DNA of 64,000 nucleotides from contig JBJMGP010000060.1 of assembly GCA_045807865.1 (NCBI GenBank), positions 43,991-107,990 on the forward strand, given 5' to 3'. This DNA comes from Pyrinomonadaceae bacterium. Its GTDB lineage: Bacteria; Acidobacteriota; Blastocatellia; Pyrinomonadales; Pyrinomonadaceae. The translations under genes and the position numbers were made by a program. Below are positions 6,822 to 61,400 of this stretch, one piece after another; the stretch's first letter is position 1; each line of letters opens with the position of its first letter. A model generated the notes under the pieces. That model saw nothing but the letters and a program-made list of their open reading frames with translations, ran no database searches and was not told the DNA's origin.

Positions 6822-6909
6822 CGGGTAGGCTCCTTCTCTTAAATGGAGGACTTCATCAAGTCGAACTCTGAACGAGGTGCGTCTGAAAACTTGCGAGGCG
6901 GAAGTGAGG

Positions 6910-9924: not shown

Positions 9925-9935
9925 AGCGCTCACCT

Positions 9936-10816: not shown

Positions 10817-10821
10817 TTCTT

Positions 10822-12894: not shown

Positions 12895-12904
12895 TTAATT
12901 CCGA

Positions 12905-13297
12905 ATGAAGACCATCAATCCGAAATCGCTCGGGCGGCCGCGCGGGTACTCGAACGGGCAGTTGACGAGGGAGGGCGCGCGGCTCCTCTTCATCGCGGGG
13001 CAGATCGGTTGGGACGAGGAGCAGCGGCTCGTGAGCGACGACTTCGTCGAGCAGTTCGACCGCGCGCTGCGCAACGTGCTGGCGGTCGTGCTTGAGGCGG
13101 GCGGCGCGCCGGGCGGCGTCGCGCGTCTCGTCGTCTACGTGACCGACAAACGCGAATACCTCGCGCGCACCGCAGAGATCGGCGAGCGCTGGCGCGCGCT
13201 GATGGGGCGCCACTATCCCGCGATGGCCCTCGTCGAAGTCAAGGGTCTCCTCGAAGACGGCGCCAAGGTCGAGATCGAAGGCACGGCAGTTTTATGA
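12905..13297 (+). CDS. RidA/YjgF/L-PSP family enamine-imine deaminase
   Basis: 130 aa. LLFIAGQIGWD..., VVYVTD..., ALVEVKGLLEDGAKVEIEGTAV are typical of the RidA fold. Confidence 0.8.
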   Translation: MKTINPKSLGRPRGYSNGQLTREGARLLFIAGQIGWDEEQRLVSDDFVEQFDRALRNVLAVVLEAGGAPGGVARLVVYVTDKREYLARTAEIGERWRALMGRHYPAMALVEVKGLLEDGAKVEIEGTAVL

Positions 13298-14106: not shown

Positions 14107-14813
14107 GCCGCCGGAACTTCTCAGCGGCGTGTTTAAGCCTCGTGCTCGCCGGGGCGTGTGCGCTCGCGCCATGCTTCGTGCGCGCCGGCCGCGCGCAGCA
14201 GGCGCGACCCGCGTCGTCCCCTAAACCTGCAAAGGTCTTTCAGGAAGCCCGGGCCGTCAACCACAGCGCCGCGCCCGACCCGGAAGCCTTCGAGTTCGAG
14301 ATGAACGGTTTCGCCTACCACGTCAAGGCGAACGGCAACGGCCGGAGGACGAAGGGCACGAGAGTCCGCGGCTTCAACCTGCGCCTCGACCGCGGCGACT
14401 CCGTCCAGAGCCTCTTCTACTCGGAGTTCGAGGGCGACCTGCTGCTCCTCCTACACCTGAACGGCGCGGGCGGCGGCGCGGGGCTGGTCACGTTGCTTGA
14501 GCAGCCCTCGATGCGCGGCCGCTGGCATCAACGCATCGAGGCCCCGGACGTAGGCGAGCCGCTCCGCGAAGGGCAGCACCTCTACCTCACCGGCGCGGGC
14601 TTCGTCGGCAAGCTCGACCTGCGCACGGGCGAGTACGCCTGGCAGCTCGAAGGGCTCGAAGACACGCGCGGCGACGAGCCGGAGCCCTTCAAAGCTTTCG
14701 ACCCGCCCGAACTGAGGGGCGACACGGTTCTGTTCCGCGAGCGGCCGGTTTACAATCCACGCAGGACGCTCGTCTTAGACAGGAAGAGCGGTAAGGTCAT
14801 CCGGGTCGAGTGA
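14103..14813 (+). CDS. hypothetical exported protein
   Basis: 236 aa, signal-like MSRRNFSAACLSLVLAGACALA. Start overlaps the upstream stop (ATGA). GC3-rich frame, no recognisable motif. Confidence 0.5.
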   Translation: MSRRNFSAACLSLVLAGACALAPCFVRAGRAQQARPASSPKPAKVFQEARAVNHSAAPDPEAFEFEMNGFAYHVKANGNGRRTKGTRVRGFNLRLDRGDSVQSLFYSEFEGDLLLLLHLNGAGGGAGLVTLLEQPSMRGRWHQRIEAPDVGEPLREGQHLYLTGAGFVGKLDLRTGEYAWQLEGLEDTRGDEPEPFKAFDPPELRGDTVLFRERPVYNPRRTLVLDRKSGKVIRVE

Positions 14814-14828
14814 AGGAGGCCGAACGTC

Positions 14829-16004
14829 ATGCTGCGAGACGGATTCATCGAAGAGACGCCCTTCTTCACGGACGAGCACGCGCGCCTCGCCGCGGGCGTC
14901 GCCGACTTCGCCGCGCGCGAGGTCGAGCCGCTGACGCATCGGGACGAAGGGCCGGACGCAGACGCCAACTTCCGCGCGCTCCTCTCGCTGCTCGCGCAGA
15001 CAGACCTTTTAAGTTACTCGGTGGCACGCGGCGACGGCGCGCCGCTCGACGCGCGCGCGCTCTGCGTCGTGCGCGAGGCGCTCGCCTACCACTCGTCGCT
15101 CGCGGACCTCGCCTTCGTCATGCAGGGCCTCGGCACCTACGCCGTCTCGCTCGCCGCGCCCGAGCACGTCCGCGACTTCTGGCTGGAGCGCGCGCGCGCC
15201 GGCAAGTCGGTCGCCGCCTTCGCGCTCACGGAGCCCGAGGCCGGCTCCGACGTGTCGAGCATCCGCACCGAGGCGCGACGCGACGGCGACTCTTACGTCA
15301 TCACGGGGCGCAAGTGCTTCATCTCGAACGCGGGGCTCGCAGACTTCTACACGGTCTTCGCGCGCACGGGCACGCGCCCCGACGGCCGCGCGGAGCTTTC
15401 GGCCTTCATCGTCGGCGCGCGCATGCCGGGGTTCCGCGTCCTGGCGCGCACGGAGCTGGTGGCGGCGCACCCCATCGGCGAGATCGAGTTCGAAGGCGTG
15501 CGCGTGCCGGCCGAAGACCTGGTCGGCGCAGAGGGTCAGGGCTTCACCCTGGCGATGCAGACGATGGACATGTTCCGCGCCAGCGTCGGCGCGGCCGCCT
15601 GCGGGATGGCGCGGCGCGCTCTCGACGAGGCGGTCGCCTACGCGAGGGCGCGCCGGCAGTTCGGCGTCACGCTCGCCATGCACCAGTTGATTCAGGAGAA
15701 GCTGGCCGTCATGCAGACCGAACTGGACGCCGCGCGCCTGCTCGTCTACCGCGCCGCGCACCTCAGAGATTCCGGCGCCGCCGCCCCTTCCCTGCTGACG
15801 CGCGCGGCCAGCGAGGCGAAGTTCTACGCGACCGAGGCGGCCCAGCGCGTCGTGGACGAGGCCGTCCAGATACACGGCGGCTACGGGCTGGTGCGCGGCA
15901 GCGCGGTCGAGCGCCTCTACCGCGACGTGCGCGCGCTGCGCATCTACGAAGGCACCACCGAGATTCAAAAACTCATCATCGCGAGGGAGATGTTGAAGGA
16001 GTAG
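14829..16004 (+). CDS. acyl-CoA dehydrogenase
   Basis: 391 aa. FALTEPEAGSDVSS, QIHGGYG, IYEGTTEIQKLIIAREML. Confidence 0.9.
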   Translation: MLRDGFIEETPFFTDEHARLAAGVADFAAREVEPLTHRDEGPDADANFRALLSLLAQTDLLSYSVARGDGAPLDARALCVVREALAYHSSLADLAFVMQGLGTYAVSLAAPEHVRDFWLERARAGKSVAAFALTEPEAGSDVSSIRTEARRDGDSYVITGRKCFISNAGLADFYTVFARTGTRPDGRAELSAFIVGARMPGFRVLARTELVAAHPIGEIEFEGVRVPAEDLVGAEGQGFTLAMQTMDMFRASVGAAACGMARRALDEAVAYARARRQFGVTLAMHQLIQEKLAVMQTELDAARLLVYRAAHLRDSGAAAPSLLTRAASEAKFYATEAAQRVVDEAVQIHGGYGLVRGSAVERLYRDVRALRIYEGTTEIQKLIIAREMLKE

Positions 16005-20115: not shown

Positions 20116-21309
<1,194 letters not shown>

Positions 21310-21313
21310 GACC

Positions 21314-21687
21314 TCACCGGACGATCAGCTTCCCCTTATACATATTCATGCCGCAGGTGAACTCGTATTCGCCGGGCTCGCGCGGGAGGATTTCGAGTGT
21401 GACGGGTTGGTTCTCAGGCAGGTGCGCGCGCCGGCCGAAGTCCGGGAGCACCACCTCCTCGCCGCAGAGCGAAGTCTCGCGCCGCGTGAAGTTGAGGCGC
21501 AGCGGGCGTCCGGCCTCCGCCACGATGGACGCGGGCTGGTAGCCGCCCTTGACCGTCACGTCCACGACCTGCACGCCGCCCGCGACGCCTGCGGCCGAGA
21601 CCGCCTCGCCCTTCCACAGCCAGAAGTACCAGACGATCCACCCGATGAGGCCGAAGCCGACGAGCGTGACGATGATCTGAGTCGTGT

Positions 21688-21691
<4 letters not shown>
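21314..21691 (-). CDS. cupredoxin-like domain protein (membrane anchored), partner of the copper ATPase
   Basis: 125 aa, N-terminal [18 protein letters not shown] metal-site-like end. Start overlaps the copA stop. Confidence 0.7.
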
Positions 21692-24030
<2,339 letters not shown>

Positions 24031-24263
24031 CGTCGCCTGACTTCCCCCAACCGCCTTCAGCTGCGTCGAGTATAAACCCTCTCCTCTGCCCCACGGCCAA
24101 ACTGCCTCCGCCCGGCCATTCTTAACCGTCGGCGGCCGGCGTGTCAGTAAGCTCGGTCACAGAGGCGGGGAGACGCGGGGCAAATTGACGGGCGGAGGTG
24201 GCAGGCGTTACGCTTGGTCTCTATCCCAATCGAAGTAACGCCCGCGCGCTTACCGAGTCTGTC

Positions 24264-25106
24264 ATGGCCGAACCCTTATCCTATAACAAATATCTGCGCG
24301 TGCCCGAGCTGATCGGCTTACAGGAATGCCTGTCCGACCCCGCGCACCACGACGAGCTGCTCTTCATCACCGTCCATCAGGCGTACGAGCTGTGGTTCAA
24401 GCAGGTGCTCCACGAGATCGACGCCGCGGCCCGTGCGATGCGCGAAGACCGCGCGGCCGTCGCCGCGCGCGCCCTCGGCCGCGTCGTCGAGATAGAGAAA
24501 CTGCTCGTCACGCAGATACACATCCTTGAGACGATGACGCCGATCAACTTCCTCGGCTTCCGCGACCAGCTCAACCCGGCGAGCGGCTTCCAGTCGATGC
24601 AGTTCCGTGAGATAGAGTTCTCTTCGGGCCTCAAAGACGACGCCATCCTGCGCGCCTTCGGCGACGACGAGTTCGCGAGCGGGCGCCTGCGCGCGCGCAT
24701 GGACGCGCCCGCCCTCGGCGCAGAGTTCTACGCGCTGTTCACACGTCGCGGCCTGGACGCCCCGCCCGACGACGCCACACTCTCCGACGACGAGCGCCGC
24801 GCGCGCTACGGCCGCCGCGTCCGCGCCGTGCTCGAAGTCGTCACGCACTTCGAGGCGCGCTACGAAGAGTACCAGCTCTCCGAAGCCCTCATCGCGCACG
24901 ACGAGTTCTTCTCGCTCTGGCGCTATCACCACGTCAAGATGGTCGAGCGCATGCTCGGCACACGGAAGGGCACCGGCGGCAGCGAGGGCGTCGGCTACCT
25001 GAAGACCACGCTCGACAAAAAGTTCTTCCCCGAACTCTGGGAGGCGCGCACCCACCTCGACTCCACACACGGCGCCGGGGGCTGCCCCTTCGCCGGCCGC
25101 GGCTGA
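24264..25106 (+). CDS. kynA: tryptophan 2,3-dioxygenase
   Basis: 280 aa from the ATG at 24264. YNKYLRVPELIGLQ...HDELLFITVHQAYELWFKQVLHEI, ...WRYHHVKMVERMLG...GTGGS.GV.YL. Confidence 0.9.
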   Translation: MAEPLSYNKYLRVPELIGLQECLSDPAHHDELLFITVHQAYELWFKQVLHEIDAAARAMREDRAAVAARALGRVVEIEKLLVTQIHILETMTPINFLGFRDQLNPASGFQSMQFREIEFSSGLKDDAILRAFGDDEFASGRLRARMDAPALGAEFYALFTRRGLDAPPDDATLSDDERRARYGRRVRAVLEVVTHFEARYEEYQLSEALIAHDEFFSLWRYHHVKMVERMLGTRKGTGGSEGVGYLKTTLDKKFFPELWEARTHLDSTHGAGGCPFAGRG

Positions 25107-25124
25107 CGCCGAACGCCTTCGCTT

Positions 25125-26672
25125 ATGCCTGAGGTCGAATTCCCCGAGCGGTTCAACATGGGCGACTACTTCCTCTACCACAACGTGGAGGAGGGGCGCG
25201 CGGGAAAGGCGTGCCTGTACTACCGGGACGAGACGTACACGTACGGGGAGGCGGTGCGCCTGTCGAACCGTGCGGGCGGGGCGCTCAGAGAGTTGGGCGT
25301 GCGGATGGAAGACCGCGTGCTCGTCGTGCTGCCGGACTGCCCGGAGTTCGCCTGGACGTGGTTCGGCATCAACCGTGTGGGCGGCGTCATCACGATGGTC
25401 AACCCGCTGCTGCCGGCGGACGACTACCGCTACTACCTCGAATACACGCGCGCCCGCGTCGCGGTCATCCACGAGTCTCTGCTGGAGAACTTCACGCAGG
25501 CCGCCCGCGACGCGAAGCACTTGCAGAACGTACTCGTCGTCGGCGCGGAGCGTGGGGACTTTCACTCATTTGCCGAAGCCTTAAGCTCTCAGTCCGATGA
25601 ATTAACCCCGGCCGACACGCACCGCGACGACGTGGCCATCTGGCTCTTCACGTCGGGCTCGACGGGCCACCCGAAGGGCGCGGTGCACTTGCAGCACGAC
25701 CTCCCCTACAACACCGAGTGCTACGCGAAGGGCGTGCTCGGCGTGAGCGAGAGCGACCTGACGGTCGCCGTCCCCAAGCTCTTCTTCGGCTACGCGACGG
25801 GCACGAACCTGCTCTTCCCCTTCGCCGTCGGCGGCGCCACTGCCCTCTTCTCCGAGCGCTCGACGCCCGAAAAATTGTTTGAAGTCATCGAACGTTACCG
25901 CCCGACCCTGCTGACGAGCGTGCCGACGATGATTAACGGCATGCTCAACGTGGAGGGCTCGGCACAGAGAGATTTATCTACCCTCCGCATGTGCCTGTCG
26001 GCGGGCGAGGCCCTCCCCGCAGAGTTGTACCGCCGCTGGGTCGAGACCTTCGGCGTCGAAATCTACGACGGGATCGGCTCGGCCGAGATGTTCCACATCT
26101 ACATCACGAACCGCCCCGGCGACGTGCGGCCCGGCAGCCTCGGCCGCGTCGTCAAGGGCTATGAGGCCGAGGTCGTGGACGCCGAAGGGCGGCGCCTGCC
26201 CGCGGGCGAGATGGGGACGTTAAAGGTCAAGGGCGACTCGGCCGCGCTCTGCTACTGGCAGGCGCACGAGAAGTCGAAGCAGACCTTCGCCGGAGACTGG
26301 TGCACAACGGGCGACCAGTTCCATCTGGACGAAGAAGGCTACTTCTGGTACCACGGCCGCACCGACGACATGCTCAAGGTTTCGGGCGTCTTCGTCGCGC
26401 CCGCCGAGATCGAGAACTGCCTGCTCCAGCACGAGGCCGTCCTCGAAGCGGCGGTGGTCGGCCACGACCCCGGAGACGGCCTCATCAAGCCCAAAGCCTT
26501 CCTCGTCCTCCGCGAAGGCCACGCCCCCGGCGACGACCTCGCCCGGTCGATTAAAGAGTTCGTCAAATCGCACCTCGCACTCTACAAGTATCCCCGCTGG
26601 GTCGAGTTCGTCCCCTCGCTCCCCAAGAACGACCGCGGGAAGATCGACCGCAGGCAGCTCAAGGCGCTCTGA
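25125..26672 (+). CDS. aryl-CoA ligase of the benzoate / 2-aminobenzoate / 4-hydroxybenzoate-CoA ligase family
   Basis: 515 aa. AMP-binding LFTSGSTGHPKGAVH, YATGTN, GDWCTTGDQF, PKNDRGKIDRRQL. Confidence 0.8.
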   Translation: MPEVEFPERFNMGDYFLYHNVEEGRAGKACLYYRDETYTYGEAVRLSNRAGGALRELGVRMEDRVLVVLPDCPEFAWTWFGINRVGGVITMVNPLLPADDYRYYLEYTRARVAVIHESLLENFTQAARDAKHLQNVLVVGAERGDFHSFAEALSSQSDELTPADTHRDDVAIWLFTSGSTGHPKGAVHLQHDLPYNTECYAKGVLGVSESDLTVAVPKLFFGYATGTNLLFPFAVGGATALFSERSTPEKLFEVIERYRPTLLTSVPTMINGMLNVEGSAQRDLSTLRMCLSAGEALPAELYRRWVETFGVEIYDGIGSAEMFHIYITNRPGDVRPGSLGRVVKGYEAEVVDAEGRRLPAGEMGTLKVKGDSAALCYWQAHEKSKQTFAGDWCTTGDQFHLDEEGYFWYHGRTDDMLKVSGVFVAPAEIENCLLQHEAVLEAAVVGHDPGDGLIKPKAFLVLREGHAPGDDLARSIKEFVKSHLALYKYPRWVEFVPSLPKNDRGKIDRRQLKAL

Positions 26673-48916: not shown

Positions 48917-49669
48917 TTACGCCACGCCTACTCTGAGGACTGCCACGTCGTCGTCCTTCATCCTCGCCGCGGCGCGCTCGCGCCGGACGAGTTCGGAGAG
49001 CGAGCCATTTTCCGACGCGGCGAGCAGAGAATCAAACTCCTCCGCACGGGGGTCGCGCCGCGCGCACGAATCGAAGTACCAGGCCGAGAGCGCGTCCGTC
49101 ATCAGCAGGAACGTGTCGCCCGGCTCGGCCTCCCCGCCGGCCTCGACCAGTTTGGCGAGCGCCGCCTCGCGTAAGGATGCGCTCGAAGGCACGAGCGGCG
49201 GGGTCGTGCCGAACTCTTCGGCCCGGGAGACGGGGAAGGCGGCGAGCACCTCCCCGCCCCGCCGCTGCACGAGGCACGAGTCGCCGAGCGCCACCGCCTG
49301 CCAACTCAGCCGCCGCCCCGAGGTCTCCAGCCGCAGCCCGACGAGCGCCGCGTACGAACCCGCGCGCCGCTTCTCCTCCGCGTACCAGGAGAGCTTCCGC
49401 CCCTCCCACGAAGCGTGCAGCCACTCGCCCTGCTCCTTCAACCACGGCCCGAACTCGGCGGCCGTCAGCGGCGCACGCACCGCCCCGACCCACTCCGCCG
49501 CGAGCCGCGTCGCCCACCGCCGCGCGTCGAAAGCCTCCGTCGCCCCATCGGCCACGGCGAACCTCAAAGACCCCGCGTCGAACGCCAACGCGTCCTCGCA
49601 CTCCTCCACCCCGCTGCCCTCTTTCGGCAGGACGAAGTGCCGGGTTTGAATTCTCCAGCGGTCACCCAT
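48917..49669 (-). CDS. PP2C-family protein phosphatase-like
   Basis: 250 aa. FAVADGATEAF, AVALGDSCLV, FLLMTDAL, KDDDVAVLRV, giving a PP2C-like acidic metal-ligand pattern. Confidence 0.7.
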   Translation of the reverse strand: MGDRWRIQTRHFVLPKEGSGVEECEDALAFDAGSLRFAVADGATEAFDARRWATRLAAEWVGAVRAPLTAAEFGPWLKEQGEWLHASWEGRKLSWYAEEKRRAGSYAALVGLRLETSGRRLSWQAVALGDSCLVQRRGGEVLAAFPVSRAEEFGTTPPLVPSSASLREAALAKLVEAGGEAEPGDTFLLMTDALSAWYFDSCARRDPRAEEFDSLLAASENGSLSELVRRERAAARMKDDDVAVLRVGVA

Positions 49670-49706
49670 TGCGAAGAGCGGGAAGCAATCGCCGCGTCAG
49701 CGGCGG

Positions 49707-49734
49707 CCTACTGCCATCTGCCTCCTGCCTACTC
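49707..49734. repeat. one-armed run of CTGCCTA-type heptamers
   Basis: cctactgccatctgcctcctgcctactc between the vWA stop and the PP2C start. Same unit (reverse complement GCAGTAG) as at 30374. No complementary arm seen. Confidence 0.5.
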
Positions 49735-50592
49735 TCATTCCGCCATCCAGATGTGCGGGGGCATGCCGGTGAGCGACGTGCCGATCTCGTAGAACTGGAC
49801 GACCGAGGAGGGGTCGGCGTTGAAGACGAAGCCGCGCGAGCCCTCGGCCGCGGGGACGCCGAGCTGCTGCGCGGCGCCGAGGAAGTTTTCGGGGAGGACG
49901 CTGGAGATGCGGAAGAGCGTGCGGGCGAAGCCGTCCTTGAGCATCGACTCCTCGACCGGGTACTCGACCTTGCGCGAGCGGCTCGAAGAGACGTGGCAGT
50001 TGAAGAGGATGACGCGGCCGTCGTCGGTGCCGAGCGACATGAGCGCCTCGCCGTCCTGCGTGGGGTCGCCGTCGCTCGACTCGCCGTCGGTCAGGTGGAG
50101 CACCGTCGGCGGGAAGCCGCGCGGGTGCGACGAGAGCCAGCCCTCGACGATGCCGCGCACGCTCCCCAGCGCGCGGCACATCGGGGTGCCGCCCTCGGCG
50201 TGCGCGTGCACCCAGACGGGGTAGCGCACCGGCGTCTCGACGTAGCCGCCCACGCCGTCGGGCACGCGGCGGTAGCCCGACTCGATGCGCGCCGGGTTGT
50301 CGGCCACGGCCGAGACGGGCGCGACGGTCATCCCGGCGAGCGCGCCGCCTAAGCCCACCCCGACCTGCCGGCCGTAGCCGACGACGGCGACGTGGTAGTA
50401 GTCGCGCACCTCCTCGGTCTTGGTGCAGCGGATGACGAGGTCGTGCAGCGCGTGGTTGACCGCGTTGGCGACGAAGTCGGCCTTGCGCCCCGAGCCCTCG
50501 CCGCCGAACGGGTCGGCCATCGAACCCGACTGGTCGAGCAGGAAGACGATGAGCGTCGGGTTGGCGCGCGTGATCTGTGCCGTGTATGCCAT
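49735..50592 (-). CDS. von Willebrand factor type A (vWA) domain protein, TerY-like
   Basis: 285 aa. MIDAS DQSGSM, GGTPM and LTDGES. Confidence 0.8.
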   Translation of the reverse strand: MAYTAQITRANPTLIVFLLDQSGSMADPFGGEGSGRKADFVANAVNHALHDLVIRCTKTEEVRDYYHVAVVGYGRQVGVGLGGALAGMTVAPVSAVADNPARIESGYRRVPDGVGGYVETPVRYPVWVHAHAEGGTPMCRALGSVRGIVEGWLSSHPRGFPPTVLHLTDGESSDGDPTQDGEALMSLGTDDGRVILFNCHVSSSRSRKVEYPVEESMLKDGFARTLFRISSVLPENFLGAAQQLGVPAAEGSRGFVFNADPSSVVQFYEIGTSLTGMPPHIWMAE

Positions 50593-50619
50593 GCGGGAAC
50601 GATAAGTGATGGGTGATAA

Positions 50620-50688
50620 GAAGCTGTTAGCTGTTGGCTTTGAGCTTCATGCCTGGCTCACAGCTCAGAGCTGACGGCCAACAGCTTC
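50620..50688. repeat. heptamer-armed hairpin (GCTGTTA/GCTGTTG units) inside the operon
   Basis: gaagctgttagctgttggc ... gccaacagcttc with an inner gagct/agctc stem. Preceded by GATAAGT-GATGGGT-GATAAGA heptamers (50601-50621). Confidence 0.7.
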
Positions 50689-50690
50689 TC

Positions 50691-51698
50691 TCAGGCCGTG
50701 AAGGTTTTCGTCTGGAAGCCGCTCCGGTGCTCGCGCAGCAGGCCGAGGTAGATGTAGACGGTCAGCACGTGCAAAGAGGAGTTGAGCATCCCGAGCACGG
50801 CCGTCTGCAAGAGCAATGTCGGCAGCAGGTCAGGGCTCCCGCTGTTCGCGAAGCTCCACGTCACGACCCAGCCGAGGCCGGTGACGAGCAGCCCCCACAG
50901 GAAGAAGGTGATGAAGATCAACCCCTTGTTGCCCTTCGTCAGCCTGTAGCTCCGTTCGAGCGCGGCGTTGGGGCCGAGCCCCTCGACGACCGCGGCCGGG
51001 ACACTGACGGCAAACATCAGGCTGAAGATGACGCCCGGCACGATGAGCAGCACGTAGCCGAGGACGACAATGATGCTGTAGAGCAGCGTCACGAGGAAGA
51101 CCCTGGGCAGCACCTTCAACCCGCGCTTCAGGCACTCGCCCGCCGACGCGCGCCCAGCGCGCTGCAAGTCGATGACGGCGTAGGTGAGCGAGCCCGACAG
51201 CAGCGCCCCGCAGGCCATCGTCAGCAACGAGAGGAGCAGGGCAGGCACGACCACAGAGGTCAGAATGCTGTAGCTGCCGCCCCCGACCACCCCCACCGGC
51301 CCCGTCCCCACCCTTCCCAGATCGAGAAGGCCGTACTGGAGGAGAGCTTGGGGCATCATCGTCACCAGCACGAGGATGCCGACGAGCGTGAAGTGCTTGC
51401 GGTAGACGGCGAGCATCGGCGAGACCACGTCCCCCACGCCCTTGAAGGGCGGCGAGGGGATGTCGTCGGCCGGCGACGAGTGGCTGTCGTCGGCCGGCGC
51501 CCACGCGCCGCCCGGCTCGGAACTCTCGGGCGCCGCCGAGGACGGCCCGCCCGACCAATCGAAGGGCCGGCGCCCGCCCTGGAAGTCGTCGGCGGCGCCT
51601 GCGCCTTCGGCCGTGTACAGGCGCGCGTCGCACGCCTCGCAGGCGACAGCGCCGACGGGGTTGACGTGACCGCAGACCGCGCATACGGGGTTGTTCAT
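50691..51698 (-). CDS. zinc-ribbon / polytopic membrane protein
   Basis: 335 aa from the ATG at 51698, 7 nt after GGAG. CAVCGHVNPVGAVACEAC zinc ribbon, Pro/Ser/Asp linker, then about 6 TM helices. Confidence 0.6.
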   Translation of the reverse strand: MNNPVCAVCGHVNPVGAVACEACDARLYTAEGAGAADDFQGGRRPFDWSGGPSSAAPESSEPGGAWAPADDSHSSPADDIPSPPFKGVGDVVSPMLAVYRKHFTLVGILVLVTMMPQALLQYGLLDLGRVGTGPVGVVGGGSYSILTSVVVPALLLSLLTMACGALLSGSLTYAVIDLQRAGRASAGECLKRGLKVLPRVFLVTLLYSIIVVLGYVLLIVPGVIFSLMFAVSVPAAVVEGLGPNAALERSYRLTKGNKGLIFITFFLWGLLVTGLGWVVTWSFANSGSPDLLPTLLLQTAVLGMLNSSLHVLTVYIYLGLLREHRSGFQTKTFTA

Positions 51699-51918
51699 GA
51701 GGAAGCTCCTTACAGTCTGAAACTTTCGGCGGCAGGATTCTCTGAAGGCGCCGCGGGACGCCCTTTCCGACCGGCCGCGACGCGCCCAGACAATATCCAA
51801 CGCCGCGCCGCCGCCTGTCAATTACGACGCCGGCGGCCGCGCGCGCTATGCTACACTCGACGCTCCCGAATCTTTCGCACGCTCTTCCAAACCCGTTCAG
51901 GACTCGACCTACACGACG

Positions 51919-54284: not shown

Positions 54285-55178
54285 TCAACGGAAGAGGACG
54301 GGGAACATCGCGGCGAAGAGCGCGATCAGGTAGACGACGGCGTAACCGCCGAAGTAGCCGCCGAAGGCGATGAGGGCGCGCAGCACGGCGAGCCCCAGCC
54401 GGCCGCGGTAGAAGACGCGCAGCGCCACGAACAGGTAGAGGATGTCGATGCCGAACTTCGCGAAGGCGAACGCCATGTTCTTCAGCGTCGGGTGGATGCC
54501 GATGAGGTAGTAGACCGGCCACATCAGCGTCGTCGTCAGCACCGCGAACGAGAGGTAGTGCATCGAGAAGACGAGGTGCTCGACGAAGTAGCGCCGCGAG
54601 AAGAAGTAGATGAGCTGGAGCAGCACGGCGAGCATGATGATCTGCAACGGCTGGAGCAGCGAGACGTTGCGCTGCCAGTGCTCGTTGACCGTGTCGTAGA
54701 GGGCCTCGACCGTGGTGCCCCTGCGCTCGGCCGCGCGGGCGAAGCGGCGGTCGTAGATGTCGCCGTTCGGCAGCTTAAACTGCGCGGCCATCTGCCGCTG
54801 GTTCTCGACGATGAGTCGGATGTCGAACATCGTCACCTGCTTCGAGGCCGTGTAGACGAAGAGGTTGAGGGCGAGGATGCCGAGGCAGAGGTTGAGCGGC
54901 TTGAGGTAAGGCCCGCGGCGCCCCGCCACCCACTCGGCGGTGAGCCGGCCCGGGCGGAAGAGGAGCGTCAGCAGCGTGCGCGTGAGCTTGGTGTCGAGGC
55001 TCGTCAGCTCCTGGGCCGCGTCCATGACGAAGTGGCGCACCGAGAGGTCGCGCGCCTCCGGCCGCTTCTCGCCGCAGCGGTGGCAGTAGTCGCCGACGAG
55101 AGCCGCGCCGCAGCTCGGGCACTCGCCCGGCCCCTCGGGCGCGGGCCGCTCCGTGACGGTCTGGACGGCCTCGGCCAA
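54285..55178 (-). CDS. DUF3667-like zinc-ribbon membrane protein
   Basis: 297 aa. CPSCGAALVGDYCHRCG followed by FRPGRLTAEWVAGRRGPYLKPLNL and about 5 TM. The upstream BMC-H ORF ends at 55183, leaving a 4-nt gap before this gene's start at 55178. Confidence 0.65.
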   Translation of the reverse strand: MAEAVQTVTERPAPEGPGECPSCGAALVGDYCHRCGEKRPEARDLSVRHFVMDAAQELTSLDTKLTRTLLTLLFRPGRLTAEWVAGRRGPYLKPLNLCLGILALNLFVYTASKQVTMFDIRLIVENQRQMAAQFKLPNGDIYDRRFARAAERRGTTVEALYDTVNEHWQRNVSLLQPLQIIMLAVLLQLIYFFSRRYFVEHLVFSMHYLSFAVLTTTLMWPVYYLIGIHPTLKNMAFAFAKFGIDILYLFVALRVFYRGRLGLAVLRALIAFGGYFGGYAVVYLIALFAAMFPVLFR

Positions 55179-55182: not shown

Positions 55183-55518
55183 TCACCCCTCCCCTTCGCG
55201 CTTGCCCCTGACGGAGCCCGCGATCTTCTTGCGCGTCGTCTCGCCCGTGTCGATGACCGGGAGGCCCTCGCCCACTTCGGCGTGCGGGCGCGGGATGACG
55301 TGCGTGGCGACGACCTCGCCGACCCTGCGCGCGGCGGCCGCGCCCGCGTCCACGGCCGCGCGCACCGCGCCCACCTCGCCGCGCACGATGGCCGTCACCA
55401 GACCGGCGTCGATCTTCTCGTAGCCCACCAGGCGCACGTTGGCGGCCTTGACCATCGCGTCCGCGGCCTCGATCATCGCCACCAGCCCGCGGCACTCGAC
55501 CATCCCTAGCGCTTCCAT
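55183..55518 (-). CDS. BMC-H shell protein (PF00936-type hexamer)
   Basis: 111 aa from the ATG at 55518, 6 nt after [66 protein letters not shown]...VIPRPH. Confidence 0.9.
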
Positions 55519-55551
55519 CCCTCTCACCTCCCCGTGCGTTCGGCCGCGCCT

Positions 55552-56079
55552 TCAGCCCGCGCGGCGGTAGACCAGTTTGACCTGCTGCACGCCCATCTGG
55601 TTGCCGATGGTCGTCGTATTCGTCAGGGTCTTCCCGTCGGAGGAGACCTGCCACTTCTGCGCGACGTTGAGTGCGTAAGTCCCGCCCTGCCCCTTCCGCT
55701 CGACGTGTGCCTCGGAGACGACCTTGTCGCCGTCCCACTTCGTCTTCGACTTGATCTCGCCCACGCCGAGCGTCGCCTGATTCGTCTCGCCGCGCTCGTC
55801 CGTGTAGTAGGTGAACTCCTTCACCTCCTCCTGCCCGTTGAGCCTGAGCGTGCGCTTGATTTTCAACTCCGGGTCGCTGTGCGCGATGACGAGCGTCGAG
55901 TCGGCCTTCGACAGTGGCCGCTCGCTGAACTCGCCAAAGTCGCTCTTCGCGCGGTCGATCTGCCACGTCCCCGAAAAGTCCGGGTGCGACTTCTTCTTAC
56001 CATCCCCCGCCACGGCGGCAGAGAGCAGGCACAACGTCAGGAGCAAGGTCAGGAGAGACGCGGGCAGCTGCCTACTCAT
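55552..56079 (-). CDS. hypothetical exported beta-rich (lipocalin-like) protein
   Basis: 175 aa. Signal peptide MSRQLPASLLTLLLTLCLLSAAVAG, followed by an alternating beta-strand pattern. The fold call is tentative. Confidence 0.5.
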   Translation of the reverse strand: MSRQLPASLLTLLLTLCLLSAAVAGDGKKKSHPDFSGTWQIDRAKSDFGEFSERPLSKADSTLVIAHSDPELKIKRTLRLNGQEEVKEFTYYTDERGETNQATLGVGEIKSKTKWDGDKVVSEAHVERKGQGGTYALNVAQKWQVSSDGKTLTNTTTIGNQMGVQQVKLVYRRAG

Positions 56080-56094
56080 CGAACACCTCTCGAA

Positions 56095-57462
56095 TCAGTT
56101 GCGCAGCGAGTGGATGGGCGCGGGGATGCGTCCGCCGCGCCGGATGAAGACGCTCGACGAAAAGGCGTTGACGGGCATGACGGGTGCGCTCCCGAGGAGG
56201 CCGCCGAACTCGACCACGTCGCCGACGACTTTGCCCGGCGCGGGGATGATGCGGACGGCGGTCGTCTTGTTGTTCATGACGCCGATGGCCATCTCGTCGG
56301 CGATGATGGCGGCGATGGTCTCGGCCGAGGTGTCGCCGGGCACGGCCACCATGTCTAAGCCCACGGAGCAGACGCTCGTCATCGCTTCGAGCTTCTCCAG
56401 CGTGAGCGCCCCGAGTTGCGCCGCCTCGATCATGGCGGAGTCTTCGGAGACGGGGATGAAGGCGCCGCTCATCCCGCCGACCGCGCTCGAAGCCATCGCG
56501 CCGCCCTTCTTCACCGCGTCGGTCAGAAGCGCCAGCGCCGCGGTCGTCCCCGGCGCGCCCGCGCGCTCGAACCCCAAAGCTTCGAGAATCTCCCCGACCG
56601 AGTCGCCCGGCGTCGGCGTCGGCGCCAGGGAGAGGTCGATGATGCCGAAGCGCAAACCCAAACGTCTCGCGGCCTCGCGCCCGACCAGTTCGCCGGCGCG
56701 CGCGAGCTTGAAGGAGAGCTTCTTAATCAACTCCGCCATCTCGTCGAGCGGCGCGTCCTGCGGCGCGTGGCGGACGGCGTGGTTGACGACGCCGGGGCCG
56801 GAGACCCCGACGTTGATGACGGCCTCGGGCTCGCCGACGCCGTGGAACGCGCCCGCCATGAAAGGGTTGTCCTCGACCGCGTTGGCGAAGCAGACGAACT
56901 TGGCGCAGGCCAAACCCCCTCGGTCGCGCGTGCGCTCGGCCATCTCCTTGATGATCTCGCCGGTGCGGCGCACGGCGTCCATGTTGATGCCGGCGCGCGT
57001 CGTCGCGAGGCTCAACGAAGAGCAGAGGCGCTCGGTCGCGGCCAGGGCCTCGGGGATGGAATCGACGAAGGCGCGCGTCCCCGGCGTGTCGCCCTTGTGG
57101 ATGAGCGCGGAGTAGCCGCCGATGAAGTCCACGCCGACGCGCTTCGCCGCCTCGTCGATGGCGCGCGCGAGCGGTATCAGTTCCGAAGCGTGGCGCGCGC
57201 GGTCGTAGACGAGCGAGGCGGGCGTGATCGAGATGCGCTTGTTGGCGATGCGCAGGCCCAACTCCTCGCCGATCTCGTCCACCACGGGGACGAGGCGCGC
57301 GGCCGTCCGCTCGATCTTCTCGCGGACGCACTCGGCCGTCTCTTCGACCGTGGCGCGGACGCAGTCGCGGAGAGAGAGCCCGAGCGTGACCGTGCGCACG
57401 TCGAGGTGCTCCATCTCGGTCATGCGCACGGTCTGTAGGATTTCCGCCTGTGTGTACTCCAT
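56095..57462 (-). CDS. UPF0210 / DUF711 family protein (function unknown)
   Basis: 455 aa. Strong family signatures: [101 protein letters not shown]. Confidence 0.85.
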
Positions 57463-57474
57463 GCCCCTCGGGTT

Positions 57475-58038
57475 CTAACGCAAGACGGTCGTGCTTAAGA
57501 AAAGGAGGACGAGGGAGAGGATGAAGAGCGCCGCCGCCACGAGGACGAAGCGCAGGCCCGAGTCGTCCGGCGTCTCTTCGAGGACGACGATGGCCTCCTC
57601 GCGCATCCGCCCGACCCGCGCGCGCGTCCCCTCCCGCACGCGCGCCACGCGGCCCCGGAGGTCGCCCGCCCGCCCCGCGTCATCAGCCTCGGCCGCCGCG
57701 GCCACTTCTGTCGCCGCCCGCGCCGACTCTTCGCGCGACTCCTGCGCGACGGCGACCTGCGCGGCCGGCTCGTCCTCGACGCCCACGTCCTTTATCTCCT
57801 CGGACGTTGGCGGCGGCGGCTCGGCGACGGCCGGTGGCCGCTCGAAGGGCGCGAACTCCTTCGGCGGCGGCGTCCAATCTTTAGTCGTCGGGGCGGCCTG
57901 CTCCTGCGGAGACAACTCGACGGCGGGCGGCGCGTCCTCCGCCTCCAAAGTCTTGCCGCACTGCTGGCAGAAACGCGACCCCGCGCGCGCCGCCGCGCCG
58001 CACGAGAGACACCTGCGAGAGATTTCGGGAAGCGACAT
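57475..58038 (-). CDS. zinc-ribbon protein with acidic linker and C-terminal TM anchor
   Basis: 187 aa. CLSCGAAARAGSRFCQQCG. Tail FVLVAAALFILSLVLLFLSTTVL. Confidence 0.55.
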   Translation of the reverse strand: MSLPEISRRCLSCGAAARAGSRFCQQCGKTLEAEDAPPAVELSPQEQAAPTTKDWTPPPKEFAPFERPPAVAEPPPPTSEEIKDVGVEDEPAAQVAVAQESREESARAATEVAAAAEADDAGRAGDLRGRVARVREGTRARVGRMREEAIVVLEETPDDSGLRFVLVAAALFILSLVLLFLSTTVLR

Positions 58039-58047
58039 AGGTCAAGG

Positions 58048-58123
58048 GGTGTCGGGTGATGGGTTCTGGTTGTTAGGTAGAAGCGGGCTCTGATCCATCA
58101 CCTGGAACCCATCACCCGACACC
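58048..58123. repeat. hairpin with perfect 19-bp stem (GGGTGAT-type units) inside the BMC operon
   Basis: ggtgtcgggtgatgggttc (58048-58066) is the exact reverse complement of gaacccatcacccgacacc (58105-58123). It sits between the ACT gene stop and the zinc-ribbon gene start. Confidence 0.85.
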
Positions 58124-58124
58124 T

Positions 58125-58568
58125 TCAAATCCTGTGCATCGCGTTGAAGAGGTCTTCGCGCTGGGCGTAGATGTGGACGCCCAGGCGGTCACCCTCGCCG
58201 CGGAAGCGGTCTTTGAGCGCGGCGACCGACTCGCCGGCGCGCGAGATGTCGGCGACGATGACCATCGCGAACTTGCCCTGCACGACCGTCTGGTTGATGT
58301 CGATGATGCTGCAACGCGCCCCGGCCAGAATCTGCGAGACGGCCGCGACGATGCCCGGGTGGTCGGTGCCGAAGACCGAGACGATGAGCCTGTCGGCGCG
58401 CCCCTCGGCCCCGCCCTTCGGCGCGCCGCCCTCGCCCACAGCGAGCGCCGGCTCGATGGCGCGGTACACGTCCATCACCAGCGCCTCGACCGTCCGCTCG
58501 TCGGCCGACGCCCCCAGGCGGCCGTAGACGGCGCGCGTGATGCGGTAGATGAGTTCCTCGTTCGCCAT
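58125..58568 (-). CDS. ACT-domain protein of the UPF0237 family with about 58-aa N-terminal extension
   Basis: 147 aa from the ATG at 58568. ACT core LIVSVFGTDHPGIVAAVSQILAGARCSIIDINQTVVQGKFAMVIVADIS...LFNAMHRI. Extension MANEELIYRITRAVYGRLGASADERTVEALVMDVYRAIEPALAVGEGGAPKGGAEG. Confidence 0.8.
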   Translation of the reverse strand: MANEELIYRITRAVYGRLGASADERTVEALVMDVYRAIEPALAVGEGGAPKGGAEGRADRLIVSVFGTDHPGIVAAVSQILAGARCSIIDINQTVVQGKFAMVIVADISRAGESVAALKDRFRGEGDRLGVHIYAQREDLFNAMHRI

Positions 58569-58579
58569 CCTGTGTACGG

Positions 58580-58906
58580 TCAGCGCCCGCGGCGCAGCTC
58601 GCGCGACGCCTCGATCAACTCGTCGGAGCGCGCGAGGTCTTCCTGCACGTCCACGCGGTCGACGATGCCGACGACCGCGGCCTCGATGGCCATCTCCTGG
58701 TCGCCGACGGCCGTGCGCGCGGCCTTCCCGTACGCGCACATCACGACCTCGCCCACGCCCGCGCCCAGACGGTCGGCCACGACGACGATATTCTTCGTCG
58801 GCTCCTTATCGAGGTCAATCGGATGCACGACCAAAAATCTGACGCCCTCCAGGTCGGGCGTCTTCTTGGTTGACCAAACGGTGCCGACGACTTTGCCTAA
58901 GAACAT
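58580..58906 (-). CDS. BMC-P pentameric vertex protein (EutN/CcmL family)
   Basis: 108 aa. MFLGKVVGTVWSTKK...LVVHPIDL...VVADRLGAGVGEVVMCAYGKAAR. Confidence 0.9.
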   Translation of the reverse strand: MFLGKVVGTVWSTKKTPDLEGVRFLVVHPIDLDKEPTKNIVVVADRLGAGVGEVVMCAYGKAARTAVGDQEMAIEAAVVGIVDRVDVQEDLARSDELIEASRELRRGR

Positions 58907-58989
58907 AAAGACCGTGAACCGTGAACCGTAAGCCGTGACGAGAGGGAAGACAGTTTTTATCTTGTCACGGTTTACGGTTCACGGTCTTT
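58907..58989. repeat. heptamer-armed hairpin, CGTGAAC/CGTAAGC family, filling the whole AldDH-to-BMC-P intergenic space
   Basis: aaagaccgtgaaccgtgaaccgtaagccgtgac - gagagggaagacagtttttatcttg - gtcacggtttacggttcacggtcttt. It abuts the BMC-P ATG (58904-58906) and overlaps the AldDH stop (58989-58991). Confidence 0.9.
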
Positions 58990-60839
58990 CATGCTTTCGC
59001 GAAGACCTCCGCGGCCTCGCCCATGTCGCGTGCGGCGGGCGTGATGATGGTGCGCGCGTTGGTGTAGATCTTCTCGCCCTTCTGGATGGCGCGGCGCACG
59101 TCGTCCTCGCAGACGAAGTCCACCGCGCGCTTGCCGTTGCCGGCCGCGGGGGAGGGCGTCTGCTTCGTGGGCGCCGGCGCGGTCGGCGCGGGCTGTGCGT
59201 GGCCGTTGCCGCCGTTCGTGGCCTGCGCGGTCGGCGCCGCCTCCGGGTGCGGGGCGGCGCCGCCGGAGTGCGCGGCGCGCTGCGGCTCCACATCCACCTC
59301 CTGCTGCACGTAGGCGTGCGGCTGCGCGACGGGGAGCGGCTGCGACGTGGCCTGTGCCGGCTGGCGTTGCGAGAGGAAGCGGTCAACTATCTTCGCGATG
59401 TCGTCGCGGCTGACGGCGCCGGCCGCGGCGGGCGCGGGCTGCAAAGGAGAAGCGGACGGCCGTGTTTGCACCGCGCGCGCGGGCCTCTTGCTCGGGACGG
59501 CGCGCGTCTCGAACGCGACGCGCTTGATGTCCATCAGGTGCCAGGGCGAGACGTTGTCCGAGGTGACGTTGCCGCCCCAAGAGCCGCAGCCCAGAGTCAT
59601 CGAGGGCGGCAGGGCGGTCGAGAAGCCGATGGCGCCATGCGTCGTCGGCGAGTTGACGACGATGCGCGAGGCGGGCATCTCGATGCCGAACGCCTGCGCG
59701 GCCTCGCGCGAGCGCGTGTGGATGCCGGCGGTGTGACCCATGCCGCCGTAGCTCAGGATTTCAAAGCAGCGCGCGGCGCCTCTCTCCAGACCGTCTTCGA
59801 CGTAGAAGGCGAGGATGGGCGAGAGCTTCTCCATCGAGAGCGGGAACGCGCGCCCGACGCCCCCGACCTCCGCCATGAGGCAGCGTGTGCCCGGCGGGAC
59901 GGTCAGCCCGGCCATCTTCGCAATCACCTCGACCGAGCGACCGACGATGGCCGGGTTGAGCGCGCGCTTCTCGGTCGTGACGACCTTGGCCAACTGGTCG
60001 GCCTCCGCGGCCGAGAGGAAGTGCGCGCCCTGCGCGACGAACTCTTCCCTCACCTGCTTCGCGACGGGCGCGTCGGCGACGACCGCCTGCTCGGAGGCGC
60101 AGATGGTGCCGTTATCAAAGGTCTTCCCCGTCAGGATGTTCTGCACGGCGATGGGCACGTCGGCGCTTCTCTCGACGAAGACGGGGACGTTGCCAGGCCC
60201 GACGCCGAAGGCGGGCTTGCCCGAAGAGTAGGCCGCGCGCACCAGCCCGATGCCGCCGGTGGCGAGGATGACCGCCGTCTGGCGGTGCTTCATCAAAGCC
60301 TCGGTGCCTTCGAGCGACGTGCTCGTCATGCAGCCGATGGCCTCGGCGGGCAGACCTTCCTTGACTCCCGCCTCGCGCATGACGCGCGCCGTCTCGTTGA
60401 TGCACCTGGCGGCCGAAGGGTGCGGCGAGAGGACGATGGCGTTGCGGGACTTGACGGCGATGAGGATTTTAAAGATGGCCGTGGAGGTCGGGTTGGTCGA
60501 GGGGATGATGCCGGCGACGACGCCGCGCGGGCTGGCGATCTCAAGCACGTCCTTCGACTCGTTGATGACGCCGACCGTGCGCAGCCCACGGAAGTAGTTC
60601 CACACGTCCTCGGCGGCGAAGCGGTTCTTCTCGCGCTTGTCGTCGGGGATGCCGTAGCCCGTCTCCTCGGTCGCCAGCGCGCCCAGACGCGCCGCGTCGC
60701 GCAGGGCCGCCCGCGCCATCGCCTCGCAGACGCGGTCGATCTTCGCCTGGTCGAAGCGCGCGAGCACCCCTTGCGCCCGGTGCGCCGCCTCGACGAGGTC
60801 GCGCGCCTGCTGTACGGATACTAAATCCTTATCCGCCAT
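58989..60839 (-). CDS. CoA-acylating aldehyde dehydrogenase (EutE/PduP-like) with about 170-aa C-terminal extension
   Basis: 616 aa. [10 protein letters not shown], catalytic Cys context [20 protein letters not shown]. Pro/Ala-rich tail containing [17 protein letters not shown] and a terminal module [40 protein letters not shown]. Confidence 0.9.
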
Positions 60840-60854
60840 GGCCCCCTCCGTCCG

Positions 60855-60931
60855 CGTGAACCGTGAACCGTAAATCGTGACCAGTGAAAAGGCAGTCCTT
60901 TCCCGTCACGGTTTACGGTTCACGGTTTACG
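60855..60931. repeat. heptamer-armed hairpin, CGTGAAC/CGTAAAC family
   Basis: cgtgaaccgtgaaccgtaaatcgtgac - cagtgaaaaggcagtcctttccc - gtcacggtttacggttcacggtttacg. The TAA stop of the upstream BMC-H gene (60927-60929) lies inside the right arm. Confidence 0.9.
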
Positions 60932-61334
60932 ACTTATTTCTCTCCTTGCTGTTATCGCGCTGGCCGGCGGGGAGCGAGCGGCCCTGTTCGCCTTCGCCGA
61001 GGGCGCCGGCCGAGCCGCCGCCGCCGACGGCGCGCTCGTCGGGGCTGTAGCCGGTGCGGCCGTTGCGCGGGAGCACGCGCTCGACCTCGCCGTGCGGGCG
61101 CGGGATGACGTGGACGCTGATCAGCTCGCCCACGCGCCGCGCCGCGGCCGCGCCCGCGTCCGTCGCCGCCTTGACCGCGCCCACGTCGCCGCGCACGAAG
61201 ATCGTGACGTAGCCGGCGCCGATATACTCCTTGCCGATGAGAGTGACGTTGGCCGCCTTGACCATCGCGTCCGCGGCCTCGACCGCGCCCACGAAGCCCT
61301 TGGTCTCGACCATTCCGAGTGCTTCCAGAGGCAT
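60927..61334 (-). CDS. BMC-H shell protein (PF00936-type hexamer) with Gly/charged C-terminal tail
   Basis: 135 aa. [61 protein letters not shown]...VIPRPH. Confidence 0.9.
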
Positions 61335-61386
61335 TCTCTTCTATCCTCGCTTCTCTGTTTGTATGAACTTTACGCCCGGGTGTAAA

Positions 61387-61400
61387 GCAACCGTAGCACC
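61387..61400 (-). promoter_or_regulatory. sigma-54-type (-24/-12) promoter candidate upstream of the BMC operon
   Basis: Minus strand reads cGGTGCTACGGTTGCTt. The GG-N10-GC spacing is identical to consensus TGGCACG-N4-TTGCW. Matched positions: GG, C at +5, TTGC, T. The -12 end lies about 53 nt upstream of the ATG at 61334. Confidence 0.3.

Follow-up and report, generated by a model that had tools for sequence, protein, structure and literature searches.

A BMC-P, ACT and DUF711 module in an operon that fits the ACI microcompartment satellite of Acidobacteria

In the catalogue of bacterial microcompartments (BMCs) by Sutter et al. (2021, Nat Commun 12:3809, PMC8217296), the ACI type comprises 125 loci, found in Acidobacteria only. 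The ACI main locus encodes an aldolase (PF00596) that carries an encapsulation peptide at its C-terminus, a hydroxyacid dehydrogenase (PF00389/02826), a triplet of BMC-P vertex proteins, a BMC-H shell protein and several unknown proteins; the BMC-H belong to the H_fuchsia or H_royalpurple clade and the BMC-P to the blue clade. A satellite locus encodes an aldehyde dehydrogenase (AldDH) with an encapsulation peptide near the C-terminus, followed by a domain of about 50 residues, and sometimes comes with BMC-H and a fourth BMC-P (PMC8217296, Supplementary Data 2). This AldDH groups with that of MIC3 loci, and the hidden Markov model (HMM) table of the catalogue includes a model for ACT whose name refers to ACI and MIC3 loci. 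ACI was placed among the AldDH-encoding metabolosome types without an obvious aldehyde-generating signature enzyme. Its substrate and function were left unsolved, with carbohydrate degradation suggested by the authors on account of the aldolase, and our literature search found no later work on ACI. Here we describe an operon in a stretch of 64,000 nucleotides of a Pyrinomonadaceae contig (JBJMGP010000060.1; the whole stretch is referred to as the window), which fits such a satellite and in which a BMC-P gene is coupled to genes for a UPF0237 protein (ACT) and a UPF0210 protein (DUF711). We put the odds at about 60% that, taken as a whole, the locus is best explained as an ACI satellite with a once-acquired module of BMC-P, a long-form ACT protein and DUF711, in which ACT and DUF711 are an accessory component and most likely lumenal cargo.

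An open reading frame (ORF) check of the window confirmed nine minus-strand ORFs, together with the coordinates, family matches and gene order given in a preliminary description of the same DNA: BMC-H, AldDH, BMC-P, ACT, a Zn-ribbon/transmembrane protein (ZnTM), DUF711, an exported protein, a second BMC-H and DUF3667 (Table 1). The genes lie on a single strand throughout, with gaps of 4-87 nt between them. A divergent RodZ-like gene and guaB form the 5' border and a convergent M14 peptidase gene the 3' border, indicating that no further gene belongs to the transcription unit. With respect to the canonical metabolosome core, AldDH stands alone in the operon. No signature enzyme, phosphotransacylase (PTAC, PF06130) or alcohol dehydrogenase accompanies it, as the preliminary description had stated, and a scan of 30 large ORFs at 109-48905 (several shorter ORFs and those at 48917-51821 lay outside the scan) revealed no PTAC, Fe-alcohol dehydrogenase, class II aldolase or 2-hydroxyacid dehydrogenase. 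The absence of a signature enzyme from the operon would be explained by the ACI main locus, which according to the published description supplies the aldolase and the dehydrogenase from elsewhere in the genome.

The preliminary description had considered the operon to represent an uncharacterised BMC type. Instead, it fits the already catalogued AldDH satellite locus of the ACI type, because every feature that could be compared with the published description (PMC8217296) matches. The origin from Acidobacteria agrees, the window ACT protein being 100% identical to a protein from a Pyrinomonadaceae metagenome-assembled genome. AldDH carries an amphipathic helix (residues 476-492) between variable linkers and a terminal domain (residues 572-616), corresponding to the encapsulation peptide and the domain of about 50 residues. 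BMC-H lies directly upstream of AldDH in 80 of 80 related loci and BMC-P downstream of it in 52, which agrees with the BMC-H beside AldDH and the occasional fourth BMC-P of the catalogue. The lack of a PTAC and the ACT HMM named for this type are further points of likeness.

Judged from its sequence, AldDH is an active-looking CoA-acylating enzyme. The best model was that of the acetylating acetaldehyde dehydrogenase (TIGR02518), the catalytic domain spans residues 1 to about 460, and the context of Cys247 is intact. A genome scan identified 577 relatives, of which the best 80, almost all from Pyrinomonadaceae, Blastocatellia or Acidobacteriota, were used for the comparison of loci. All full-length homologues continue beyond the catalytic domain with a variable linker, the amphipathic helix, a second variable linker and the terminal domain of about 45 residues, in this order. 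The helix motif [R][ED][ED]IAAIVDRFL was conserved in 77 loci, and the linkers flanking it varied. Two of the loci come from contigs recorded as Heliomicrobium sp. (L056, JAJNQA010000012.1) and Heliobacteriaceae (L079, CAYWDW010000831.1). They encode an ACI-type BMC-H and an AldDH (63-66% identity) with a typical encapsulation peptide and terminal domain, and are either mis-binned contigs or ACI-like satellites outside Acidobacteria.

Mapping of the nine window proteins onto the 80 best AldDH loci (species representatives) distinguished two forms of the satellite locus. Complete loci (42 in number) contained BMC-H, AldDH, BMC-P, ACT, ZnTM, DUF711, a variable slot and the second BMC-H, the slot between DUF711 and the second BMC-H ranging from about 0 to about 6 kb. 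In 10 further loci the same order was followed until the end of the contig, or a match to ZnTM alone went undetected. The other form was represented by 20 sister loci whose contigs extend 4 kb or more downstream and which have BMC-H and AldDH without BMC-P, ACT and DUF711; most of them continue after AldDH with ZnTM and a second BMC-H, so that the second BMC-H occurs downstream in both clades. In a neighbour-joining tree of the AldDH catalytic domain, all module-bearing loci fell into one clade and all module-free loci outside it. BMC-P co-occurred with ACT/DUF711 in every locus that was long enough to judge, and 20 of 20 sister loci had neither. Within the module clade, the order was intact although the identity of ZnTM dropped to about 30% and insertions arose downstream of DUF711.

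With 42 complete and 10 truncated species-level loci showing the same order, chance can be dismissed as the source of the arrangement, and the synteny of DUF711/ACT with shell genes in related genomes, on which the preliminary description had made its hypothesis depend, was thus found; the triad of BMC-P, ACT and DUF711 also occurs in unrelated lineages (see below). The tree suggests that the three genes apparently joined the satellite operon once, in a single clade of Pyrinomonadaceae. What the catalogue calls the "occasional fourth BMC-P" is exactly this BMC-P, the companion of ACT/DUF711. Another matter on which the sister loci bear is the proposal of the preliminary description that DUF711/ACT is the aldehyde-generating signature activity. 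As these loci keep AldDH and shell genes without the pair, DUF711/ACT is not the maker of the substrate of AldDH, and the proposal is not supported. ZnTM occurs in both clades, also where ACT/DUF711 is missing, and is therefore assigned to the ancestral satellite locus.

The pair itself is represented in structural databases by SP0238 and SP0239 of Streptococcus pneumoniae (PDB 1ZPV and 2HA9). DUF711 of the window (605 bits to PF05167, cut-off 25; 706 bits to NF003700, cut-off 440) aligned with SP0239 over the full length (E=2e-159), and SP0238 aligned with residues 58-147 of the window ACT protein only. Both window proteins scored above the NCBIfam equivalog cut-offs. By these alignments they are the universal UPF0237/UPF0210 pair, in which ACT is longer at the N-terminus. 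As in the pneumococcal pair and about 70 of the control loci described below, ACT lies upstream of DUF711. In contrast to the pneumococcal pair, the window ACT protein has 59 extra N-terminal residues, a Zn-ribbon gene intervenes before DUF711, and both genes reside in a shell-gene operon next to BMC-P. DUF711 is unusually conserved: tblastn gave 56-64% identity to homologues in gut Firmicutes-type contigs, Rhodothermales and other phyla, compared with 30-45% for its ACT partner.

DUF711 adopts a PFL/RNR-like ten-stranded beta/alpha barrel, and its family contains no candidate radical glycine (PMC4390871). It shares this barrel with the PFL-like signature enzymes of GRM metabolosomes, but differs from them in the lack of a reported radical glycine, in the absence of a radical-SAM activase gene from the operon, and in belonging to a different sequence family. 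A role of DUF711 as a glycyl-radical signature enzyme was rejected on the first two of these grounds.

The additional residues of ACT are organized as two N-terminal helices followed by a linker. In an AlphaFold2 model built with 40 homologues, helices were predicted at residues 2-18 and 24-43 with a predicted local distance difference test score (pLDDT) of 60-71, segment 44-59 was disordered, and the ACT fold was confident. Residues 1-40 were mostly at least 90% identical across 48 Pyrinomonadaceae loci, the linker varied between 14 and 37 residues, and the ACT domain was again conserved. The hydrophobic moments of the two helices were 0.49 and 0.60. These values are within the range computed for what we take to be the sequences of the PduP and PduD peptides. 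The extension thus resembles, on the basis of the model, the architecture of an encapsulation peptide, a terminal amphipathic helix on a poorly conserved flexible linker. A precedent for such an arrangement is the diol dehydratase PduCDE, which enters its BMC via the N-terminus of PduD, so that one subunit carries the encapsulation peptide. The window pair is similar in that an amphipathic helix and a flexible linker are found at the terminus of one subunit and the partner lacks a signal of its own; it differs in having two helices and in the occurrence of the extension also in loci without nearby shell genes, and targeting is a prediction here.

The extension is absent from canonical UPF0237 (PDB 1ZPV), but a search of 1.84 billion representative proteins showed that it is common to a broad long-form subfamily of 130-160 residues with 30-50% identity, in which a shared pattern h..h...h..LG..A...VE.hV..h is followed by a linker. 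It was therefore not gained at the window locus. Of the claim that ACT had here acquired an extension similar to an encapsulation peptide, the resemblance stands, with two helices and a linker, and the local gain does not, the long-form subfamily being broad and including shell-free loci.

We compared nine genomic contexts of long-form ACT outside Pyrinomonadaceae. In three contigs from two unrelated lineages (L169, L170 and L171), a BMC-P gene (EutN/CcmL) lies directly upstream of long-form ACT, with DUF711 behind it in L169 and L170; the contig of L171 ends after ACT. These BMC-Ps are 64-65% identical to the window BMC-P, whereas their ACT proteins are only about 32% identical to the window ACT protein. 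The GC content is 50% in L169, 38% in L170 and 47% in L171, compared with 68% in the window, with unrelated genes in the neighbourhood. Of the three, L170 and L171 are relatives, with BMC-Ps that are 92% identical. When they are counted as one, the association of BMC-P with long-form ACT occurs in at least three separate lineages, with the full triad including DUF711 in all three. In each of the three contigs BMC-P is the sole shell gene within 8-10 kb.

As a control we used about 75 metagenome loci of short-form ACT, obtained from a scan with an alignment of ACT proteins carrying an extra N-terminal domain; in about 55 of them there was room for at most 12 extra N-terminal codons. DUF711 was located immediately downstream of ACT in nearly all of the approximately 75 loci, and their flanks gave no match to BMC-H, BMC-P or AldDH even at E<=0.01. 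The extension was thus absent from about 55 shell-free short-form loci, present beside BMC-P in the window lineage, L169, L170 and L171, and present in six loci without a shell gene within 10 kb. From these comparisons of gene neighbourhoods we take the link of ACT/DUF711 to shells to be real beyond Pyrinomonadaceae.

The stand-alone triads look like satellite loci of the FRAG or MIC3 type, with which they could be compared by description only. The catalogued FRAG and MIC3 loci are likewise scattered shell genes without identified cargo, the name of the ACT HMM refers to ACI and MIC3, and in FRAG4 loci an ACT-domain protein is the only non-shell component (PMC8217296). In the same catalogue, a Rubricoccus genome (Rhodothermaeota) carries a FRAG1 BMC. 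Rubricoccaceae also have long-form ACTs, so that for some of the shell-free contexts shells may be encoded elsewhere in the genome.

The shell-free contexts have neighbours of their own. In the two Acidobacteriota contigs, ACT-DUF711 is followed by a conserved protein of 216-228 residues of unknown family and by RidA (Ribonuc_L-PSP) (L086 10001-12871, L087 10001-13092), and in one Rhodothermales contig by an MR/MLE-family enzyme (L083 10001-12886). Such neighbours may point to a UPF0210 function in amino-acid or 2-oxoacid chemistry. In FCB/Chlorobiales-like contigs (L085 10001-10450, L168 10001-10447), DUF711 was not found within 3-10 kb of ACT, and the neighbours are thyX and sucC; long-form ACT is thus not always paired locally with DUF711.

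If the operon is an ACI satellite with an acquired module, its aldehyde would be made by the class II aldolase with an encapsulation peptide that is encoded in the main locus elsewhere, and NAD+ would be recycled by the 2-hydroxyacid dehydrogenase of that locus, which also holds the BMC-P triplet (PMC8217296). AldDH, with its internal encapsulation peptide and its gene bracketed by two BMC-H genes, would oxidise the aldehyde within the ACI shell. The ACT/DUF711 complex would be an accessory, shell-associated component and most likely lumenal cargo. We give roughly even odds to the more specific proposal that the complex is shell-associated, most likely lumenal, and held by the N-terminal helices of ACT, possibly on the co-encoded pentamer. 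The two amphipathic helices on their flexible linker would then act as a tether to the shell, possibly to BMC-P, and DUF711, which lacks an extension of its own, would need its ACT partner for entry and ride in with it. The weakest step is the chemistry: DUF711 might catalyse its conserved reaction on a small central metabolite inside the shell, under the control of the ligand-binding ACT domain. This could be a side reaction added to the aldolase/AldDH pathway, and turnover of an acyl-CoA or 2-oxo/hydroxy-acid pool is a speculative candidate. Such a role is attractive, if speculative, because ACI has no phosphotransacylase and DUF711 has the barrel fold without the radical glycine.

Several observations weigh against this interpretation. 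The ACI identity comes from comparison with the published description, and the ACI main locus is absent from the 64-kb window, where no shell genes other than those of the operon were found and the 30 large ORFs were scanned. With a single gain within the ACI satellites, the 52 loci count as one evolutionary event, and the 20 sister loci do without the module. The ACT extension consists of two helices and not one, the part of the published encapsulation-peptide HMM file that we examined holds no ACT entry, and hhalign gave a probability of 0.7% for similarity between the extension and the AldDH encapsulation peptide, a value that is uninformative for such short helices. Outside Pyrinomonadaceae, long-form ACT-DUF711 pairs of Rhodothermales (L083, L084) and of other Acidobacteriota (L086, L087) lack shell genes over a distance of 10 kb, and in the FCB-type contigs (L085, L168) long-form ACT stands alone. 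Finally, as the preliminary description had supposed, a literature search for UPF0210 (also UPF0237 and COG2848) found no functional assignment or biochemistry.

The best-surviving alternative takes ACT/DUF711 for an ordinary housekeeping pair of the cytosol, fixed in the operon on a single occasion, perhaps for shared regulation, and never encapsulated; the helices would be a general feature of the long form, serving for instance to dock onto DUF711 or to oligomerise. The single gain of the module in the AldDH tree, the sister ACI loci without the pair, the occurrence of the extension in loci without a shell gene within 10 kb and its dissimilarity to the AldDH encapsulation peptide are in line with this explanation, and the conservation of DUF711 across phyla (E=2e-159 to the pneumococcal protein) suggests the same core function everywhere. 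However, the co-gain of a dedicated BMC-P is then left unexplained. Further points against it are the recurrence of an orthologous BMC-P (64-65%) upstream of long-form ACT at GC contents of 38-68% and among unrelated neighbours, the absence of shell genes from the approximately 75 short-form loci, and the persistence of the order BMC-P, ACT, ZnTM, DUF711 while the adjoining slot was repeatedly remodelled. We regard a purely cytosolic pair as unlikely, though as a serious competitor.

A more far-reaching variant of the shell-associated accessory is that long-form UPF0237 and UPF0210 form a dedicated BMC-associated enzyme system in several phyla, tethered by the ACT helices, possibly to a BMC-P of its own. 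Such a system could be the missing cargo of FRAG loci and could supply a missing core step in ACI, for example acyl-CoA turnover. At present we consider this generalization rather doubtful.

It is also conceivable that the triad acts without a closed shell, with the pentamer as scaffold or regulator, and that its presence in the ACI satellite is secondary, as might be read from BMC-P being the sole shell gene nearby in L169, L170 and L171. Fragmented BMC loci with scattered shell genes (FRAG types) are, however, common in the catalogue (PMC8217296), and the triad of Pyrinomonadaceae has a BMC-H gene on either side and next to it the gene for an AldDH that bears an encapsulation peptide. This possibility seems very improbable. 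Moreover, BMC-P is not known to us to function outside a shell, which we count against it.

That DUF711/ACT is the aldehyde-generating signature enzyme of a previously unrecognised BMC type, with AldDH as the sole other cargo, is hardly credible and already largely refuted: the absence of an aldolase, lyase, PTAC or alcohol dehydrogenase from the operon and the 30 scanned ORFs and the fold shared with glycyl-radical signature enzymes would suit it, yet the locus fits an ACI satellite, for which an aldolase with an encapsulation peptide comes from the main locus (PMC8217296), 20 sister loci have the same AldDH, BMC-H and ZnTM without the pair, the pair occurs in about 75 loci without AldDH or shell genes, and both the radical glycine (PMC4390871) and a radical-SAM activase in the operon are missing.

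The C-terminal elements of AldDH deserve a separate remark. Its terminal domain (..V.EDDV.....G.KI....TIITP.ARD..) resembles the N-terminal domain of a third, DUF711-partnered form of ACT (hhalign probability 80%; Table 1). It also gave a sub-threshold match to the C-terminus of PduM (PF15953, best E 2e-4). Comparison of this small AldDH/ACT domain with PDB profiles yielded mostly repeat noise, with the exception of weak matches to the PSBD/E3-binding domain. On these similarities, the domain may be a mobile shell- or partner-binding module. The linker that follows the encapsulation peptide (58989-59363 on the minus strand of the window; also L016-L049 and L055-L078) contains short clade-specific conserved motifs, among them "EAGSMY" in the module-bearing clade and "SPVKTIIHELKPQ" in the sister clade, which may be additional short linear interaction motifs.

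The remaining operon genes are of varying constancy. In the first BMC-H, the KAAN and PRPH motifs of the interface are of the standard kind, and the C-terminal tail measures about 45 residues. In ZnTM, a CxxC...CxxC motif (residues 10-28) is followed by a disordered acidic middle part and then by a basic segment, with a transmembrane helix (residues 164-185) at the C-terminus. In sister-type loci it was found, for example, at L057 12382-12879, L062 11773-12261, L055 7248-7700 and L058 11700-12185. As a constant, membrane-anchored component of the operon, it might serve to attach the organelle to the membrane. It is odd to find exported proteins encoded in BMC operons. Several sister loci have, between AldDH and ZnTM, a gene for a vWA-like secreted protein with a signal peptide (L057 11820-12368, L061 11721-12410, L075 11697-12386), and in the window clade a protein of another type follows DUF711. 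This 175-residue protein gave no Pfam or NCBIfam match, and homologues were found in 5 of the 80 loci (L001, L003, L004, L052 and, weakly, L013). Homologues of DUF3667 were limited to L001, L003, L004, L052, L081 and L082. Both were rejected as parts of the system, being kept in the closest relatives only, and the exported protein probably lies outside the conserved system.

A scan for a sigma-70-like promoter of the minus-strand operon found none, and terminator-like sites occurred at chance rate; such scans are uninformative for Acidobacteria. Elsewhere in the window, we noted an acyl-CoA cluster at 8777-16004 (three enoyl-CoA hydratases, SDR, RidA and acyl-CoA dehydrogenase) and a kynurenine-pathway group at 20116-26672 (tryptophan 2,3-dioxygenase, kynureninase and AMP-binding ligase). 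Both are more than 28 kb away from the BMC operon and unrelated to the finding.

Table 1. Features of the operon, with the ACT proteins whose N-terminus resembles the AldDH terminal domain. Positions are those of the window unless another contig is named.
Feature	Position	Strand	Remarks
BMC-H shell hexamer, first gene of the operon	60927..61334	-	PF00936 4e-29
CoA-acylating AldDH, 616 aa	58989..60839	-	TIGR02518 576 bits; PF00171
AldDH internal encapsulation-peptide-like amphipathic helix, residues 476-492	59364..59414	-	between low-complexity linkers of variable length
AldDH C-terminal domain of ~45 aa, residues 572-616	58992..59126	-	conserved in all full-length homologues
BMC-P vertex pentamer	58580..58906	-	PF03319 5e-29; 11 nt upstream of ACT
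ACT protein (UPF0237)	58125..58568	-	NF001220 91.6 bits vs cut-off 74, residues 60-147 only
ACT N-terminal extension, residues 1-43, two amphipathic helices, candidate tether/encapsulation signal	58440..58568	-	
ACT flexible linker, residues 44-59	58392..58439	-	G/S/A-rich, unconserved, 14 to 37 aa; pLDDT <50
ACT domain, UPF0237 family, residues 60-147	58128..58391	-	NF001220; PF13740 2e-15; PDB 1ZPV E=3e-8; pLDDT >90
Zn-ribbon tail-anchored protein (ZnTM)	57475..58038	-	weak Zn-ribbon Pfam matches
UPF0210/DUF711 protein, 455 aa	56095..57462	-	PF05167 6e-182; no terminal extension
Exported 175-aa protein with signal peptide	55552..56079	-	variable slot between DUF711 and second BMC-H
Second BMC-H shell hexamer, end of conserved block	55183..55527	-	PF00936 2e-30
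DUF3667 Zn-ribbon multi-pass membrane protein	54285..55178	-	PF12412 3e-11; 4 nt after second BMC-H
ACT proteins with AldDH-terminal-like N-terminus	L092 ~891-1083, L097 ~6860-7040, L101 ~610-790; P0194, P0265, P0192, P0223, P0184		

The ACI locus type is already known, and an ACT gene is included in the HMM table of the catalogue (PMC8217296). The searchable text of that paper does not describe DUF711/UPF0210 as a constant partner, which may be present in the diagrams as an unlabelled Pfam box. Matches to "05167" in the supplements were numbers inside HMM and tree files and not a DUF711 model. Nor does the searchable text describe that the fourth BMC-P is strictly coupled to ACT/DUF711, that the satellite locus has two forms, or that triads stand alone in other lineages; the putative two-helix tether of ACT and ZnTM are likewise not mentioned there.

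With the two forms, with and without the module, the ACI satellites gain a substructure, and a reason can be offered for one surplus BMC-P paralogue. ACT/DUF711 becomes a candidate cargo for ACI and possibly for fragmented loci without known cargo. ACI BMCs occur in abundant soil Acidobacteria, so that the ACI substrate is of ecological interest. UPF0210 and UPF0237 are very widespread and their crystal structures are about two decades old, yet our literature search found no functional assignment. The functional handle on UPF0210 that the preliminary description had hoped for is supported in a modest form, and is strengthened by the triad across lineages. For this family, the recurrent link to one vertex protein and to an AldDH bearing an encapsulation peptide provides a lead that is concrete and testable, and raises the questions of whether the pair enters the shell, which shell protein it would bind, and which reaction would be helped by enclosure.

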